Shown: piece after piece, positions 3,544 to 41,248 of the stretch
How positions within the stretch are numbered: position 1 is the first letter of the stretch
Layout: each line of letters opens with the position of its first letter
IMG/VR virus record: IMGVR_UViG_2541047860_000002
DNA: 64,000 nt
Source of the DNA: a virus
Taxonomy: Duplodnaviria; Heunggongvirae; Uroviricota; Caudoviricetes
Direction: 5' to 3' (one strand)
Translations under genes and position numbers: made by a program
Notes under the pieces: generated by a model
Databases searched by the model: none
The model's input: only the letters and a program-made list of their open reading frames with translations
What the model was told of the DNA's origin: nothing

Positions 3544-3855
3544 ATTGGCAGCCTCCTTTTGCTAATTTAAGGAGCTACCGCGTGAGGTCTCAATCTCAAT
3601 GGCGGTAGCACTGGCTGGGTTGAGACTACCGGCGCAAAAGGGAACCGGCCTGCCTTTCGGCAGCCCAGCCAGCACTACCATTGATCTTGGAGCTATACGC
3701 TACGTATGGCTGTGCGATGGCATGACACAAAAAAAGACGCTTTCGGCGTCTGTGTCGCCTTTTGCATTATCCGGGGTCTCAATCCCGGCACCCGTTTTTC
3801 TAAGGTGCCGTAGAAATATACCCCACGATAATGCCAGGGCGCAACAGTCAGTATT

Positions 3856-24525: not shown

Positions 24526-25100
24526 CAGAAAGCCTCCCAGTCAGTCGCGATAATATCCACACCAGTTGCAAACCAGTCTGTCTGCGCCTGTAAATCCCCA
24601 TTCATCATTACCAGGCGAGGCATCACCATCACATCGCACCCTTCCACAATATCGAATGCCTCTTCCGGCAAGAATTCGAAGAGCTTTTCTTTGCTGCCAA
24701 TGCTGCCACGGAACATCGATATATAGCTCCCTTTAGGCCATGATGTCCGCCGGGCATCAAGCCCTTTCATCATCCAGTAAAAAGCCGAGGAAAAAGGGAT
24801 ATTCTTTTTGCCAATGATTACATTATTCGCTTCTGTGTACTTCAGGAACTTAACTAACCTTACCATTGACTCGGATAACGCAACGTATGGCTCATGATTG
24901 ATTGCTGACACGCTTACACCGTGCAATCCAACGCTTACCACTGTCATATCGCCGCTCTGTGCGGTTTCGATATTGACGCCTTTGCGAACTAATGAGGCGT
25001 AAAGTTCCTCTCGCTTTTGGGTCCAGCGTTCCCGCTTCCCTATGAAGTCACTCAAAATGAGATCTTCTTCTGCATATGCGTTATCGTTCGCCATTAACAT
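24525..25100 (-). CDS. two-domain protein with C-terminal DUF2829-like domain
   Basis: 191 aa; C-terminus FYWMMKGLDARRTSWPKGSYI ... TDWFATGVDIIATDWEAF fits the W-rich DUF2829 pattern. Confidence 0.5.
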   Translation of the reverse strand: MLMANDNAYAEEDLILSDFIGKRERWTQKREELYASLVRKGVNIETAQSGDMTVVSVGLHGVSVSAINHEPYVALSESMVRLVKFLKYTEANNVIIGKKNIPFSSAFYWMMKGLDARRTSWPKGSYISMFRGSIGSKEKLFEFLPEEAFDIVEGCDVMVMPRLVMMNGDLQAQTDWFATGVDIIATDWEAF

Positions 25101-25554
25101 AACGTCTCCTTTTTTACACGCGCGACTATCCCCCGGAAGTGCCGGTAGTGATGTCGTAAATTCGTATTAATTAAGGGGTACAGCCTGAGCGGCTATATGA
25201 TGAATTGAAAGGAGTTGTGGCGGTGGTGCCTCCACCTGCCAGGTTAGCCACTCCTGGCGACGTCACTTATCAGAACGTAGTGAATAAAAATGGCTTCGTC
25301 ACGAGCGCATAGCCGCAATTACCACAACGGAAACGGCGCTCACGCTAATTAAACGCCTTTTCCTGTTGTGCGCCGTGCTCTTCCGGCTGTCACACCGAAT
25401 CGCCAGGATGGTGAGTCCTCGGTCCGCCACTGTTATCGGGGCTTGCACATTCCGGCTACCTGGTCCGTTTGCCTGAGCAAGAGTCAAAGATACCCCTTTA
25501 ACGTCACCAGACCGCTAACGACGCATGTGCCAGACGCCGTGTTACAACCAAATA

Positions 25555-25630
25555 TGGTGGCCCCTACCGGACTTGAACCGGTGACCGTGCGATTATGAGT
25601 CGCCAGCTCTAACCACTGAGCTAAAGGGCC
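25555..25630 (-). tRNA. tRNA-Ile2-like (anticodon CAT; could be read as Met)
   Basis: 76-nt cloverleaf with CCA end; near-identical to the E. coli ileX-type sequence as recalled. Confidence 0.8.
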
Positions 25631-25784
25631 AGATTACTGTTAATTCCGCTTACGCTTTTTGCCAGGACCGCGTAAGGCTTTTGCTGCTTGCTCGACCCCA
25701 TATGCAACCACCAGCAGAAATAAAAATGTCCACCAAGGGTTCTTGTCGGCAAACGTCCAAAATTCCATCATGTTATCTATTTGG

Positions 25785-26612
25785 TTATTTCACCGGAACA
25801 AACGGAACAGCGGTATTACTGGTCATATACTGCGGTAGCGTTCCGTTCCATTTGTTGATCGCTTCCAACTCCATAACGCCGGGGTTCTGGCGCAGAGCCT
25901 CACCGCGTAAACGAATGGCATCAGCTTCAGCCTGGGCTTTTGTGCGAATGGCATCGGCCTGTCCAGCAGCTTCTGCGCGCAGCATGTTGGCTTCTGCTTC
26001 GCGTTGCTTGACTTCCTGCTCGCGTTGCAGAGTTTTCTGGTTCGCCGTGACTTTGGCATTAATGCTGTCGATAACGGTTGGCGGGTACTCCGGCTTGCCC
26101 ACATATGAGAGGCTCATTACCTGAATACCGATGGGCGTCATTTCTTCCTGAATGTCTTTAAGGGCTGCATCAAGCAATTCAGATTTGCCACCGTCGATAA
26201 ATTTGTCGGTGGTCATTTTGCTGGCTAACCGGTTCAGAGCATCTGCAACCTTCTGGCGTAGATCGGTATCAGTAATATCATCTACACCTTTGCGATAGGT
26301 CTGAAATACCGTTGTGACTTTTGCTGGATCAACCTTGTAGGCTACGCCGATGTGGTAACCAATGGTTGTTCCGTCGCTCATCTGGAAGCTGAACGGCTCA
26401 TCGTATGTCTTCATTTGCTTAAAGGTCGGGAAGATATAAACTTCAGTATTCAAGCCTGTCCAGTAGCGACCAACGCCAACTACTTCACCGATACCTTTAT
26501 CATCCCCCAGCTTATTTACTTTGATCCCTACGTTACCTGGCTCTACCCGATCGCATCCGGTCAGACATAAAGAACCAAAAATAATCGCTGCACTAATCAA
26601 CGTTTTTTTCAT
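25785..26612 (-). CDS. SPFH/band-7 domain lipoprotein
   Basis: 275 aa; lipobox LCLTGC after signal peptide; prohibitin-like core and C-terminal coiled coil. Confidence 0.7.
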   Translation of the reverse strand: MKKTLISAAIIFGSLCLTGCDRVEPGNVGIKVNKLGDDKGIGEVVGVGRYWTGLNTEVYIFPTFKQMKTYDEPFSFQMSDGTTIGYHIGVAYKVDPAKVTTVFQTYRKGVDDITDTDLRQKVADALNRLASKMTTDKFIDGGKSELLDAALKDIQEEMTPIGIQVMSLSYVGKPEYPPTVIDSINAKVTANQKTLQREQEVKQREAEANMLRAEAAGQADAIRTKAQAEADAIRLRGEALRQNPGVMELEAINKWNGTLPQYMTSNTAVPFVPVK

Positions 26613-26829
26613 TAATCAATTTCCTGGTTTTTTCACGAAAAAAGACTACTGCAAAAGCCGGGTAAATGAGCGCGAGAAGGACTCCCAACAATACAAGTAT
26701 TGTGCTGTCAGATGAGATCATATTTGGCAAAAGCCAAACATACAGAACCAGTGACACAATCAAACAGAGGACGACATAAATATATAACCGCACCCATAGC
26801 GTTCGACATTTGTTCGGATTGTTCTGCAT
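26593..26829 (-). CDS. small membrane protein
   Basis: 78 aa with two hydrophobic helices; overlaps the lipoprotein gene start. Confidence 0.4.
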   Translation of the reverse strand: MQNNPNKCRTLWVRLYIYVVLCLIVSLVLYVWLLPNMISSDSTILVLLGVLLALIYPAFAVVFFREKTRKLINEKNVD

Positions 26830-27092
26830 CCTCTCACTCCATTATTTACCGAATAAAAAAGCTGCGGTGCCTGGTGCCTCCAGGTGACGTTAACCAGTTA
26901 ACAATTAACGCCGGGATGTTTGACTTAACCACTAAGGAGGATTGTTTTAACTGTTCCGCGTGCGCTTAGCCGCATTCACCGCAATGGTAAGAGCACTTGG
27001 CTGGCTGGGCGGCGATGACGCCTGTACGCATTTGGTGATCCGGTTCTGCTTCCGGCATTCGCTTAATTAGCCAAATACTCTTAACGTTGCAC

Positions 27093-27179
27093 TGGCGGAG
27101 AGTAATGGAATCGAACCATCATCGCTTGCGCAATGGGACGGTTTTCAAGACCGCTTGAGCACCATGCTCCCTACTCTCC
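27093..27179 (-). tRNA. tRNA-Ser-like (anticodon TGA), type II
   Basis: 87 nt; 7-bp acceptor stem, CTTGAAA anticodon loop, long variable arm, CCA end; fold checked by eye only. Confidence 0.55.
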
Positions 27180-27581
27180 AGTGATTGTGATGGTCGGTGC
27201 TGAACTCCGACACAGGGTTGTAGCAAGCCCCGCAAAGCGCGCACTACTGTAGTTGCGGCACATCAGCCTGTGCATTCACCACAATGTTGAGAACACTGGT
27301 TGTCACGCTGCAACGCAACATTTATTCATAGATTGGGATATGACCCCGTTACGCCAGTGTTCTCAACGTTGTGGTGCCGGTTACGGTTCCGGCCAGGCCT
27401 CTTCCTCAACGGGGTGTTCTCCATACGGACTACCGTTTATTGGTCGTTCCTGCGGTTTATGTTGTGAAGCCAGATGCTTATCTTCTGGTTGCTTCAAAGA
27501 GCTGCACTTCATCACAACGGTAAGAGCACTCGATGCATTTAAGCCAAGCCCCATAAGGGAGAATGCCCTTACCTGTTGTGT

Positions 27582-27657
27582 TGGTGCCGGTTAACGGACT
27601 CGAACCGCTGACATCCTGCTTACAAGGCAGGCGCTCTACCAACTGAGCTAAACCGGC
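27582..27657 (-). tRNA. tRNA-Thr (anticodon TGT)
   Basis: 76 nt, canonical D and T arms, CCA end. Confidence 0.8.
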
Positions 27658-27661
27658 AATT

Positions 27662-27748
27662 TGGTGGGGAGTGATGGAGTCGAACCACCCGAGTCGCAAT
27701 GACAGTAGATTTACAGTCTACCCCGCTACCCCTACGGACTAACTCCCC
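27662..27748 (-). tRNA. tRNA-Tyr (anticodon GTA), type II
   Basis: 87 nt with long variable arm, CTGTAAA anticodon loop, CCA end. Confidence 0.7.
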
Positions 27749-27753
27749 TAAAT

Positions 27754-27830
27754 TGGCGATGGTGGGTGGATTCGAACCACCGACCGACAGCTTAGAAGGC
27801 TGCTGCTCTATCCTACTGAGCTACACCATC
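27754..27830 (-). tRNA. tRNA-Arg (anticodon TCT)
   Basis: 77 nt, CTTCTAA anticodon loop, GGTTCGAATCC T-arm, CCA end. Confidence 0.8.
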
Positions 27831-28897
27831 ACTTGCCGGGTACGTCTCCGGCGAGGGCTTCCACCTCCGTATGCTTTTCGGCGCACCGCGCCCTGGCTGC
27901 AATTCGGTAACAGGGGATGCACAACCCTGGCTTCCAGCGTGATTAGCGCCTTCAGCATGACGGGATATACCCGTAGTAGGATGTTATCCCAGAAAGCCAT
28001 TAATCAATGGCTGTTACGCGGGAGGGACGTAACAGGTAAGGGCGCTGACCAGAAAGACCTGACCCTTCTCATTCATCTGGTTAATCACACCAGCGCCCTT
28101 GCCTGTTATGCCTCCCCGTTCCCTAATACACAGACGGGGACACTCTGCGGTCGATTTTTTGACGGGGGACGACTCATACCCCGTGGCGTCTGGCTTCTTA
28201 GGCCGCTACCATCATCAGATCATCGTTTGCATTTACTTTAATGGTCGGTTTCTAAACCGCCGCAAAGTCGCTAACCATGACGAAAACCCTAAAAAAGCCC
28301 ACCCGAAGATGGGCAAATACGCTACATCTCACACAAGAAAGAAGCCGACTGCCTGAGCTGGATTCACTTTCAAATGCCCGCAGAAAGGGATCACAAGTCG
28401 GCTTCTTTCTTGATGCGGCACTCTCTCCGCCCGTCACCGCTCTGTCTCGGTTGTCGCGTTTGCCACGCCAGCCGTAACGAGGTTTAAAGTCTTTACACGT
28501 TTCCATCACTCGACTGCCGTCTGTGGCTGTTCGTTGCAGCGGGGGTGCCTCCCCCTGGGGATATCCCCGGCCTTACCCCATTCTTTCAAGACACAATGCA
28601 AGGCCACATCCGCATAGGTGCATTACCGCAACATTAAGGAGACTCAGGGCAAAAGGTAACCGCCACAAAAATCCCTATGCCTCCTTAATGTTGAAGATGT
28701 GCATTGATGATTAGATGCAGCATGTACCGTTACTCTCTGCCGGACCATCATCAATGAACACCTTAAAAAGACCTTCCGTGGCTCAACATGTATTGTCGTT
28801 TACTCCGCAAAGTGCTCTCTCTGAAACCACTTTCCGCACTAAACCTGCTGAACTTTGGCCTGCACGGTGCCAAAGCGTGCTCTTGCATTACCATCCT

Positions 28898-28906
28898 TTT
28901 CTAACA
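28898..28906 (-). promoter_or_regulatory. recurrent motif TTTCTAACA
   Basis: In the ORF-free region upstream (minus strand) of the tRNA cluster. Confidence 0.35.
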
Positions 28907-29053
28907 CTTTAATTTGTTAAATGCTGGTGGGCGAACAATAACCAATAAGTGACTATCAAGCCCAGCAAGCGAAACGTGGGTACTGCCCACCAGCAAGGAA
29001 AATTCTATGTTAAGTTATCTCCACAATCAATACATTCGAATTGTGATTTTAGA

Positions 29054-29062
29054 TTTCTAACA
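29054..29062 (-). promoter_or_regulatory. recurrent motif TTTCTAACA
   Basis: 3 bp before the stop of the 407-aa gene; oriented toward the tRNA cluster. Confidence 0.35.
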
Positions 29063-29064
29063 CA

Positions 29065-30288
29065 TTATTTCCCATAAAGATCTTCTACACCCCCATTCTT
29101 CTTATCCCATTCGTTCGCCCATACCCGGCAAGCGTCAATGATTTCCTGACGACGATCTCCTTGCATGAACGGGATGCTTTCATGGAAACAGCTTGGAATG
29201 CAGGCCACACTGAATACAGTATCAAACTCCGTCTGCTTGATTGCCTCCAGCGTCTCCGGACGCATTTTTAATTCATCGATTGGCGCATCCTTAGAGTCCA
29301 TAATCCGGCGATATAAGCGCGGAAAATCCGTCTCCAGGTACGCCATAATTTTATCTGCGAGACATTCGTCTATGTCGGTATTCCAGTCCTTTTCGAAGCC
29401 CGGCAGGCGATAGTAAAGCGGCGTTCCCCATACCGATGGGATCACATCCATCGTTAACAGGCGATTGGTTCTGATTTGTTGATGGTAATTAGCCGTCAAC
29501 AGTGCTTCGCCACGCTGCCCTGTTTCCGCAACCAGGCCGTGCGGATACTCATGGATGTAGGCAATGGCATCCCTTCCATCATACATGAGTGGAAATGTCT
29601 CTGGTCTTTGTCCCATGCCACAAGCACGGTTCAGATCGTGACCAAGCTGTGAGCACTCTCGCTTTAATGTTTCGATAATGCTCTGCGCTGTAGCCAACTT
29701 TTTACGCAGTGTGACGCCTTCGCCTTGATAATCAATGCATTGCTGATTGAGCTTGGTTAAACGCTCTTTTAGTTCCCTGCGCTCTCTTTTCAGCGTGCGG
29801 TTATCCTTCTCCGCAACATCCAGCCGCTTTGTCAGGCTTGGCGGATAGTCTTTTTTGTAACGGTTCAAATCGGCTTCGGCAGATTTACGCAGTGTATTTG
29901 CCTGTTCAAGACGCGCTTCCAGATTGCCGATCTCATTACGCATATTCGCGGCAAATTGATTAACTGCATCACCTAGGCTTTCAACTGTCGCTGATACGCC
30001 TGTGACTTGTGAAAAACGGATCAAGCCATCATTAACGGCTTGTTGGTATTCCTCAAACTGATCCACCAGCTTATTGTAATCAACTGCCCCATCATCAAGC
30101 AGCTTGTTGATTTCCGCCACCAGGTTATCTGTAGTGGCAATGACACTCTCGTGCAGTCGCTTTGACAGGTCATCACCCGGATTCCGTTTCTGTATAAGAG
30201 CGATTTGTGTGCGCAGCGTTTCAATTGCTGTCGAGATAATTTCCAGATTAGAAGTATCAGTGTGTTGACTCATTGCTGTTCCCGTCAC
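29065..30288 (-). CDS. hypothetical coiled-coil protein
   Basis: 407 aa; N-terminal ~230 aa heptad-rich, C-terminal globular part with conserved Cys/His; probable start at the internal ATG (30273). Confidence 0.5.
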   Translation of the reverse strand: MTGTAMSQHTDTSNLEIISTAIETLRTQIALIQKRNPGDDLSKRLHESVIATTDNLVAEINKLLDDGAVDYNKLVDQFEEYQQAVNDGLIRFSQVTGVSATVESLGDAVNQFAANMRNEIGNLEARLEQANTLRKSAEADLNRYKKDYPPSLTKRLDVAEKDNRTLKRERRELKERLTKLNQQCIDYQGEGVTLRKKLATAQSIIETLKRECSQLGHDLNRACGMGQRPETFPLMYDGRDAIAYIHEYPHGLVAETGQRGEALLTANYHQQIRTNRLLTMDVIPSVWGTPLYYRLPGFEKDWNTDIDECLADKIMAYLETDFPRLYRRIMDSKDAPIDELKMRPETLEAIKQTEFDTVFSVACIPSCFHESIPFMQGDRRQEIIDACRVWANEWDKKNGGVEDLYGK

Positions 30289-40897: not shown

Positions 40898-41248
40898 AGT
40901 TACGGCCTCACTAACAGGTTTAACAACCTGCTACCCGCTGTCAAACAGGTGGCAGGACGTGACAGGGTTGACAGACTGGCGTTAGTGAAACCAGCAGGCC
41001 GAAGCCTCCCCATCACGCCCCACCATAATTCGGGCGTAACGCGGTTTACGGACACAAAAATACCGCAATATCGGAAATCTGCGGTTGTCCGCACTAACAT
41101 TCAGGCTGTCAAACCTGGTCGCAGAATTTGCTACGACGGCATGAATATAAGCCTGAAAACATGGAAGATCAACTAAAAAATTTCAGCAATGGATGACTTC
41201 AGTCGATGATGCAGATCATACATTCCGATTTAGAAACAGCAAATTAAT

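Follow-up and report, generated by a model that had tools for sequence, protein, structure and literature searches.

Tightly folded stem-loops behind the tRNA genes of a P1-like phage-plasmid belong to a widespread and apparently undescribed family

Stem-loops placed between the functional RNAs of a transcript are familiar from several phage and bacterial systems. RNase III takes as its substrate a double helix of about two turns, and precedents for its action are found in T7 early RNA, the lambda N leader and the rRNA operons. In the tRNA cluster of phage T4, two structured non-tRNA RNAs, species 1 (rnaC) and species 2 (rnaD), lie directly behind a tRNA; we know of no function for either. The tyrT repeats of E. 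coli follow tRNA genes and carry copies of a tRNA 3′ end, and their RtT RNA units (RF00391) are released by processing of the tRNA operon transcript. Repeats resembling miniature inverted-repeat transposable elements (MITEs), such as ERIC/IRU and Correia, are units of 70–140 bp with terminal inverted repeats and variable interiors in transcribed intergenic regions, and Correia elements are cut by RNase III when transcribed. Here we describe a family of long hairpins from the tRNA region of a P1/P7/D6-like phage-plasmid, contained in the 64,000-nucleotide stretch of IMG/VR record IMGVR_UViG_2541047860_000002 (the window). The structure of these hairpins is under selection and is conserved by compensatory change, and they lie at the joints at which tRNA cassettes have been exchanged or lost.

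The hairpins resemble the RNase III stem-loops (T7 R0.3–R1.3, the lambda N-leader and sib structures, and the stems flanking 16S and 23S rRNA) in being helices of about two turns in long, largely untranslated polycistronic RNAs, in occurring as several related copies per operon between functional RNAs and, in lambdoid prophages, in lying in the early-left leader. However, the T7 sites have internal loops whereas the hairpins here are near-perfect, are fused to tRNA CCA ends and are followed by a conserved linker and small hairpin; the sequences are not known to be related. T4 rnaC, with its T-arm (GGGUUCGAAUCCC) and long hairpins, recalls some family members, yet the likeness is positional and structural only, since the T4 RNAs are discrete, stable, single-copy species with tRNA-like ends and no repeated module. 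The tyrT units repeat directly every 178 bp and contain no long hairpin of the present sequence, and the RtT model, which does find genuine copies in another record analysed (L116), has no match in 26800–29100 at E≤10. From ERIC and Correia elements the family differs in its lack of target-site duplications, its strictly sense orientation, its conserved flanks and its restriction to phage early and tRNA regions. The kind of element, an intercistronic or 3′-trailer stem-loop of phage transcripts, is already known; this family apparently is not.

A first-pass annotation of the window had reported, between tRNA-Ser and tRNA-Thr, three direct copies of a short motif and one inverted copy forming a 23-bp hairpin. 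A repeat finder recovers the direct copies at 26972–26997, 27272–27297 (85% identity to the first) and 27505–27530 (77%), together with the inverted pair 27277–27299/27354–27376 (arms of 23 nt at 96% complementarity, spaced by 54 nt). The degenerate core pattern CACAACGKTRAGARCAC with up to three mismatches has five matches in the window against 0.73 expected, a number reached in none of 100 shuffles, and four of the five fall within 26980–27529. The reported arrangement is nevertheless incomplete, as the interval holds three hairpins and two more lie outside it. The other two direct copies also have inverted partners, more diverged, at about 27580–27558 and 27092–27069. The minus strand is the sense strand of the tRNAs and carries all the relevant features of the window; read on it, each direct copy is the 3′ arm of a long hairpin of its own. 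The five hairpins, with their folding free energies (dG), are as follows.

28116–28020, minus strand: HP0, upstream of the tRNA-Arg/Tyr/Thr block; 5′ arm CATAACAGGCAAGGGCGCTGG, 3′ arm CAGCGCCCTTACCTGTTACG; dG −48.8 kcal/mol
27586–27505, minus strand: HP1, starting 1 nt behind the CCA of tRNA-Thr; its 3′ arm is the third direct copy; dG −39.7 kcal/mol, z −4.16
27376–27277, minus strand: HP2, the 23-bp hairpin first reported (inverted repeat I1), behind a 15-nt tRNA-Thr remnant; dG −51.6 kcal/mol, z −5.06
27097–26972, minus strand: HP3, starting 2–3 nt behind the CCA of tRNA-Ser; its 3′ arm is the first direct copy; dG −49.3 kcal/mol, z −2.6
25374–25315, minus strand: HP4, short-looped, downstream of tRNA-Met/Ile; CACAACAGGAAAAGGCG...CGCCGTTTCCGTTGTG followed by GTAATTGC; dG −25.8 kcal/mol, z −4.49

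Minus-strand folding, which the first-pass annotation had put forward as a check, thus gives stable structures for HP1, HP2 and HP3 (z −4.2, −5.1 and −2.6). On the plus strand HP1 folds at −30.7 kcal/mol against −39.7 on the minus strand, and HP3 at −47.7 (z −1.0) against −49.3 (z −2.6); both are weaker there because some of their pairs are G·U. A covariance model (A2, R1; hereafter R1) was built from the arms alone of related hairpins, with HP4 outside the training alignment. Scanned over the 64 kb, it finds HP1 at 42.5 bits, HP4 at 40.6 bits (E 7e-11) and HP0 at 25.1 bits (E 1e-5), with nothing else below E 0.05, and it scores the sense strand above the antisense strand (HP1, 42.5 vs 24.6 bits; HP4, 40.6 vs 16.6 bits). 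Long loops such as those of HP2 and HP3 are penalised by the loop-less model.

Pairing is maintained while the sequence changes. Among 39 non-identical arm pairs, 96.2% of cells hold standard pairs against 33–54% in slid controls, 10 of 19 pairs show compensatory change on both sides, and doubly changed cells number 74, against 16.9 ± 3.2 in shuffles; these statistics are inflated, since pairing was a selection criterion for the arms and they are related to one another. Within HP1, the window and P7 differ from P1 and D6 by two changes of C-G to U-A and one of G·U to G-C. Each hairpin also has its own distal stem, for instance GAGAACACUGG/CCAGUGUUCUC, GAGGCCA/UGGCCUC or GAUCAU/GUGAUC. Since these stems covary with the local partner and not with the neighbour, long-range helices in which the 3′ arm of one hairpin and the 5′ arm of the next enclose a tRNA, as in rRNA operons, were rejected. 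A covariance-model match had been named beforehand as a test of the motif. No Rfam family reaches its gathering threshold on the hairpins anywhere in the window, and at E≤10 (26800–29100, 25100–25640, the P1 homologue and the e14-like homologue) they draw only miRNA-precursor-shaped chance matches. This absence from Rfam does not make the hairpins unreal, because their compensatory conservation spans unrelated phage groups.

That conservation also bears on the possibility that the repeats are functionless debris, namely tRNA genes in decay and extra copies of tRNA 3′ ends that repeated rearrangement of the cluster left behind. Tandem modules and variable tRNA content among relatives would fit such an origin, and tRNA relics do exist; residual tRNA sequence beside the motif, of the kind that marks a tRNA pseudogene, is present in the T-arms of some loops and in one remnant.

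27386–27372, minus strand: tRNA-Thr 3′-end remnant CCGTAACCGGCACCA, fused to the start of HP2, recognised by direct comparison with the end of tRNA-Thr (...CCGTTAACCGGCACCA)

These 15 nt are the last 16 nt of tRNA-Thr less one base. Canonical T-arm-like stem-loops occur in sense orientation in 4 of the 25 loop types among the matches listed, against 0.09 expected, and never in antisense; the HP2 loop contains a degenerate version (GGGGTCATATCCC/GGGGUCAUAUCCC). The earlier suggestion of tRNA remnants therefore holds for the 15-nt piece and for such loops. It fails for the motif itself, which has no tRNA covariance-model match at E≤10. Likewise, the resemblance of the motif to a tRNA D-arm extends over only about 8–9 nt and is supported neither by the tRNA covariance model nor by ARAGORN, no hairpin or motif copy being called by ARAGORN or RF00005. 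Stems of 17–28 bp would not persist in debris, whereas here pairing is kept by compensation at those 10 of 19 stem positions, across phage groups otherwise without common sequence, in arms that give no tRNA covariance-model signal. Debris is already disfavoured on these grounds, and we consider it improbable.

The family is widespread. By BLAST of the region, which is independent of any pattern, it matches 1002 plasmid records in Escherichia, Klebsiella, Salmonella, Shigella and Cronobacter. The segment 26960–27600 has a counterpart of 100% identity on a 74.5-kb plasmid from E. coli O39:NM F8704-2; for 26900–27600 there are matches to phage P7 (94% covered, 95.6% identity) and also to D6 and P1. 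P1, P7 and D6 carry the same hairpins as the window, with HP0 and HP2 conserved in all three, and SSU5-like phage-plasmids carry family members whose distal stems and loops differ and which alternate with tRNA-Asn, Tyr, Thr and Ser. In IMG/VR, scanning with a two-arm pattern returned at least 120 stretches, and clustering of the matches listed yields about 25 unrelated loop types on one common stem. Carriers include P1-like and SSU5-like phage-plasmids, SfV/mEp460/cdtI/e14-like lambdoid prophages, Stx2c and Klebsiella phages. The lambdoid copies have no tRNA nearby; they lie in sense orientation in a 650-nt untranslated leader between a cI-like repressor and the early-left genes, downstream of a promoter TTGACA-17-TAATGT. 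Further copies without tRNAs stand before tail genes. In 1253 of the 5426 complete E. coli genomes, the 3′ arm and its flank occur at 968 places on chromosomes, across which they are about 98% conserved, and at 748 on plasmids; they are also present in Stx2c, SPN1S, phiV10, phiEt88 and several Klebsiella phages. No annotation lies over them among the E. coli matches listed. In the e14 region of E. coli K-12, there is no room for the element beside ymfK. A scan of GTDB with one genome per species gave 21 stretches, of which the credible ones are from Enterobacterales (Pantoea, Escherichia, Mixta and an Enterobacterales metagenome-assembled genome, MAG). In the same scan (L139–L158), the two-arm pattern also hit MAGs from unrelated phyla (Clostridiales, Actinomycetes, Pyrinomonadaceae, Anabaena) at perfect palindromes, which may be chance matches or unrelated to the family. 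Literature searches, including full-text searches by sequence string, returned nothing on these hairpins; the family is apparently both unannotated and undescribed.

The hairpins of the window sit in the homologue of the P1 ban operon. In P1 this region is annotated as an operon on one strand under a C1 operator, in the order Pban, a 'dicF-like region', trnA, trnT, tciA–C, trnI and ban. The hairpins are in sense orientation, adjoin the tRNAs and show a G·U bias; their placement within the Pban/C1-operator transcription unit comes from the P1 annotation, from which they would be transcribed as part of a single tRNA/ban early-operon RNA. On the other strand, the same annotation has the predicted ORFs upl and plp, which cover the spacer between the tRNAs and tciA and so overlie the hairpins, and it could be argued that the plus strand encodes the proteins Upl and Plp while the repeats are incidental. 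The window has a Plp-like ORF on the plus strand (27253–27594, 113 aa) that is 86% identical to P1 Plp. This identity mirrors the nearly identical DNA, however, and it collapses where the HP1 loop differs, the frame not being conserved there. In addition, part of plp is antisense to trnT, the place of upl is taken by tRNA-Ser in the window, P7 and D6, no Pfam match was obtained for either ORF, and essentially no coding sequence is annotated under the matches in the plasmid and E. coli chromosome records listed. A protein-coding explanation is hardly credible to us.

The anatomy of the module is regular. The core outer stems of the family measure 15–26 bp (median 18), with 1–3 further pairs at the base, giving overall stems of about 17–28 bp that are near-perfect with one conserved bulge or mismatch; the apical regions are variable and span 24–96 nt, with 24–82 nt among the representatives and about 95 nt at most in an e14-like copy. 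The stems thereby attain the size of RNase III substrates (about two helical turns, roughly 20 bp or more). The family was counted in 434 instances from 136 loci; a tRNA lies within 700 nt of 377 of them, and 136 begin between −4 and +8 nt from the 3′ end of a same-sense tRNA (Thr 88, Ser 29, Asn 19); no tRNA-adjacent arrangement in opposite sense was found among the 434. Copies that lack a tRNA have, ahead of the 5′ arm, either a small GC-rich hairpin with ACA or a recognisable piece of the tRNA-Thr acceptor end, as at 27386–27372 in the window; TAACCGGCAC recurs in the lambdoid copies. On the 3′ side of the stem come a G(G/A)UGAAU linker and a small hairpin, either GCRCA-GGCUGA-UGYGC with compensated variants or GCG-GCUAAG-CGC, and an alternative continuation carries a GAAGC...GCUUC hairpin. 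The tRNA genes and small hairpins of the window that bear on this layout are the following.

27830–27754, minus strand: tRNA-Arg(UCU) (ARAGORN; Rfam tRNA)
27748–27662, minus strand: tRNA-Tyr(GUA) (ARAGORN; Rfam tRNA)
27657–27582, minus strand: tRNA-Thr(UGU) (ARAGORN; Rfam tRNA)
27179–27093, minus strand: tRNA-Ser(UGA), with tRNA-Sec-like geometry (ARAGORN)
25630–25555, minus strand: tRNA-Met/Ile(CAU) (ARAGORN)
27466..27495, minus strand: small spacer hairpin GAAGC-AACCAGAAGATAAGCATCTGG-CTTC, the 'type A' continuation after HP1, present in the minimum-free-energy (MFE) fold of the region
27258..27273, minus strand: small hairpin GCACA-GGCUGA-UGUGC after a GGUGAAU linker, the 'type B' continuation, in a predicted fold

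The genes of the tRNA-Arg/Tyr/Thr block (27582..27830) are separated by 4–5 nt. The type A continuation follows several different hairpin types in other phages, and the type B stem covaries among phages (GCGCA/UGCGC, GCACA/UGUGC, GCGUA/UACGU).

From this layout we tentatively favour, with somewhat less than even confidence, the reading that the modules are punctuation for processing and stability within transcribed stem-loops, and that recombination at the shared arms is a consequence. Processing signals were one of the three options raised in the first-pass annotation, beside tRNA remnants and an embedded non-coding RNA. A module would consist of the stem of about 17–28 bp, the variable apex, the G(G/A)UGAAU linker and the small GC hairpin, and would begin at most 3 nt from the CCA of the last tRNA of a block or at the decayed 3′ end of a tRNA. 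The usual route after a CCA end is a cut by RNase E. Here there is no single-stranded room behind the CCA for RNase E, and a cut in the helix followed by trimming would make a coherent route to the 3′ end. RNase III would cut in or at the base of the stem, parting the tRNA from the downstream RNA, and the short trailer left could then be trimmed exonucleolytically to the mature 3′ end. A hairpin that stayed uncut would shield nearby RNA ends and maintain structure along the extended untranslated region. Recombination is a by-product in this reading: tRNA cassettes and neighbouring modules are exchanged or deleted at the short homologies that the arms provide. Occurrence of the family in unrelated phages points to a host factor or a purely structural role, and a host factor or no partner is most likely because the carrier phages share no obvious phage protein. 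Cleavage, whether by RNase III or another enzyme, and any effect on tRNA maturation are what we infer.

Several points weigh against this proposal. The choice of RNase III is a guess from shape and size, and the RNase III sites known to us need less sequence conservation than is seen here. The stem base (C)ACAAC(A)G/CGUUGUG and the GUGAAU linker are conserved, a hint of a more specific partner. Conservation of the base is itself partly an artefact of the search patterns: an SSU5-like hairpin behind tRNA-Ser has the compensated base CACAGC...GCUGUG, which the regular expressions missed. Reading the 'invariant' AAC, G and AG stem columns as recognition boxes was consequently dropped, as their invariance is partly forced by the patterns and a compensated variant exists. 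The arm sequences were gathered by patterns demanding a stem and by a filter, from members that are related. A palindrome maintained at the DNA level would show compensatory changes too, and the excess of G·U over A·C cells (33 vs 13) is suggestive, not decisive, for RNA. For 63 of 76 distinct tRNA-linked hairpins, the tRNA-sense strand gives the more stable fold (mean difference −3.3 kcal/mol); five clusters were oriented by MFE, which makes the strand-stability claim circular there.

Mosaic joints coincide with the hairpins. In an alignment of the window, P7, P1 and D6, differences begin and end inside hairpins: the HP1 interior is swapped between the pair formed by the window and P7 and the pair formed by P1 and D6, and an exchanged segment, running from where the HP2 spacer ends to the HP3 3′ arm, holds tRNA-Ser in the window, P7 and D6 versus a pseudo-tRNA-like stretch in P1. 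One hairpin type joins different upstream and downstream modules in different phages. Two independent deletions, in L009 (E. fergusonii plasmid NZ_CP086606.1, 1290–1390) and L026, fuse the 5′ flank of HP0 (GGGAGGCA) directly to an HP1-type hairpin with loss of the Asn/Thr or Arg/Tyr/Thr tRNAs, and an E. albertii plasmid has one extra unit. Mosaic breakpoints and deletions of tRNA cassettes thus fall on the hairpins, which most likely serve as recombination joints.

Alternatively, then, the element could be a palindromic joint or MITE-like inverted repeat acting at the DNA level, which moves, swaps or deletes tRNA cassettes and whose RNA structure is incidental. Mosaic boundaries on hairpins (inside HP1, and only there, the window and P7 depart from P1 and D6), the exchanged tRNA-Ser segment, the varied contexts of one hairpin type and the tRNA-removing deletions in L009 and L026 all agree with such a joint, as does an outer arm more conserved than the interior, in the manner of terminal inverted repeats. 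The MITE form is there as well, with inverted arms of 17–28 nt round a short non-coding interior. However, no direct repeats flank the arms as target-site duplications would, copies always have the sense of the neighbouring tRNAs and genes instead of being scattered both ways, and the conserved flanks (G(G/A)TGAAT and the small hairpin) are unexpected for a transposed element. The G·U-type pairs favour one strand, the carrier phages have no transposase or recombinase in common, and any conserved repeat is expected to recombine, so that a dedicated function is not needed. We regard a purely DNA-level role as unlikely.

Another alternative is that the hairpins are excised as stable small RNAs acting in trans, for instance as a tRNA-like decoy, a sponge or a protein-binding RNA comparable to T4 species 1 and 2 or to the Y-RNA-like YrlA. 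The very stable folds, the sense T-arm-like stem-loops in 4 of the 25 loop types among the matches listed, the similar position and composition of T4 rnaC and the roughly 98% conservation of the 3′ arm and flank at the 968 chromosomal places are in keeping with this, as is the resemblance of an adjacent element to the prophage small RNA STnc100.

26863..26983, minus strand: STnc100-like element, from the GGUGAAUGC flank of HP3 to GCACCGCAGCTTTTTTATT; RF02076, 39.4 bits, E 1.6e-6

This match covers positions 31–147 of the RF02076 model and stays below the gathering score of 47 bits; the P1 homologue scores 33.4 bits. The element adjoins HP3 and the ORF of a 78-aa membrane protein, starts at GGUGAAU and ends in a terminator-like GCACCGCAGCUUUUUU. 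STnc100 and PasD are prophage small RNAs of the Hfq type (bioRxiv 10.64898/2026.05.13.724894). The likeness to RF02076 is sub-threshold and concerns the 3′ flank of HP3, not the hairpin, and other hairpins continue differently. A trans-acting RNA should conserve its single-stranded parts, whereas the apices here are hypervariable (about 25 unrelated loop types among the matches listed), mostly without a T-loop, and the YrlA model (RF02553) misses the hairpins, with no match in the window region at E≤10. Excised small RNAs are in our view an unlikely account. In P1 (L002, 3123–3240, minus strand), the YrlA model has a weak match (25.6 bits) that lies across the tRNA-Asn/tRNA-Thr junction and not on a hairpin; a T-arm followed by the D-arm of the next tRNA mimics the permuted YrlA order, and tRNA junctions are a likely source of YrlA false positives in tRNA clusters.

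A further reading takes the module for a nut-like or boxA antitermination signal that keeps polymerase Rho-resistant through the untranslated tRNA region. The consensus 3′ arm AGTGCTCTTACCGTTGTG contains a boxA-like UGCUCUUA, the small GC hairpin follows about 14 nt further on as boxB follows boxA, and the early-left leader of lambdoid prophages is the expected place of nutL. NusB/NusE bind single-stranded boxA, whereas the boxA-like bases here are locked in a stable helix and vary with their pairing partners (columns 36, 37, 40 and 41; for example GUUCUCAAC and GGCCUCAAC). A single-stranded GCUCUUUA-like boxA with a boxB pentaloop is thus not found, the small hairpin having a 6-nt GGCUGA loop, and antitermination of this kind is very improbable. 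The HK022 put antiterminator RNA, which has two irregular stems in 73 nt (PMC9378689), was set apart by this published architecture, unlike the long regular stems here.

It is also conceivable, though distinctly doubtful, that these features combine in a composite RNA module with a sequence-recognising partner, either for an attC-like but integrase-free exchange of tRNA cassettes or as tRNA-mimicking decoys against tRNA-targeting host defences. Such a module would run from a tRNA end or small GC hairpin through ACA, a long stem whose variable apex is sometimes a T-loop, and GUGAAU to the GGCUGA-loop hairpin.

Even in P1, a model phage, the annotation of this stretch of the ban operon still consists of the hypothetical ORFs upl and plp where the evidence indicates conserved RNA stem-loops. 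More than 1000 phage-plasmid records carry the element, as do about a quarter of complete E. coli genomes, and neither PGAP nor Rfam annotates it in the records examined. If the hairpins are processing signals, as we tentatively favour, they would account for the release of phage tRNAs from long early transcripts that run into protein genes; if they are recombination joints, they would explain the variable tRNA content of these phages, which bears on the view of phage tRNAs as a counter-defence against anticodon nucleases. Under either reading the family merits an Rfam-type model, and upl and plp a re-annotation.

Other features of the region were noted in passing. The tRNA-Ser(UGA) gene is atypical: it misses the general Rfam tRNA model at the gathering score, and its best match is the tRNA-Sec model at 44.6 bits (gathering score 47). 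With an acceptor stem of 8–9 bp, a T stem of 4 bp and a D stem of 6 bp, its geometry is Sec-like or 'allo-tRNA'-like, yet the anticodon is that of Ser. The same gene occurs in P7, D6 and SSU5-like plasmids, and in the D6 record tRNAscan-SE makes no amino-acid call for it. Right behind the STnc100-like element begins another module swap (25785–26829, minus strand), where the window has an SPFH/Band-7 protein (275 aa, Pfam E 1e-30) and the 78-aa membrane-protein ORF, and P1, P7 and D6 carry tciA (TerB-like) and tciB. Upstream of HP0, 28297–28420 (minus strand) holds a terminator-like hairpin GCCCATCTTCGGGTGGGC followed by TTTTTT, roughly matching the position of the P1 'dicF-like region' and giving weak MicA and STnc240 matches only; it may be a small RNA heading the operon. 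HP4 is preceded by a long leader.

25380..25630, minus strand: tRNA-Met/Ile(CAU) with an untranslated leader of about 175 nt before HP4 (ARAGORN; homology)

The leader (25380–25554, minus strand) reads ATTTGGTTGTAACACGGCGTCTGGCACATGCGTCGTTAGCGGTCTGG...GGTAGCCGGAATGTGCAAG... and is without an Rfam match. It is homologous to an e14/SfV-like prophage leader downstream of a cI-like repressor (L136, 3195–3385), which follows a strong sigma-70-like promoter; both leaders precede a family hairpin, and the leader could be an early-leader regulatory RNA. Elsewhere, the minus strand holds genes for two C4 antisense RNAs, together with matches to isrK and to a c4 a1/b1 target (3598–3685, 3730–3808, 40945–41030 and 41098–41150), which suggests two immI-like antirepressor control regions within one 64-kb stretch.

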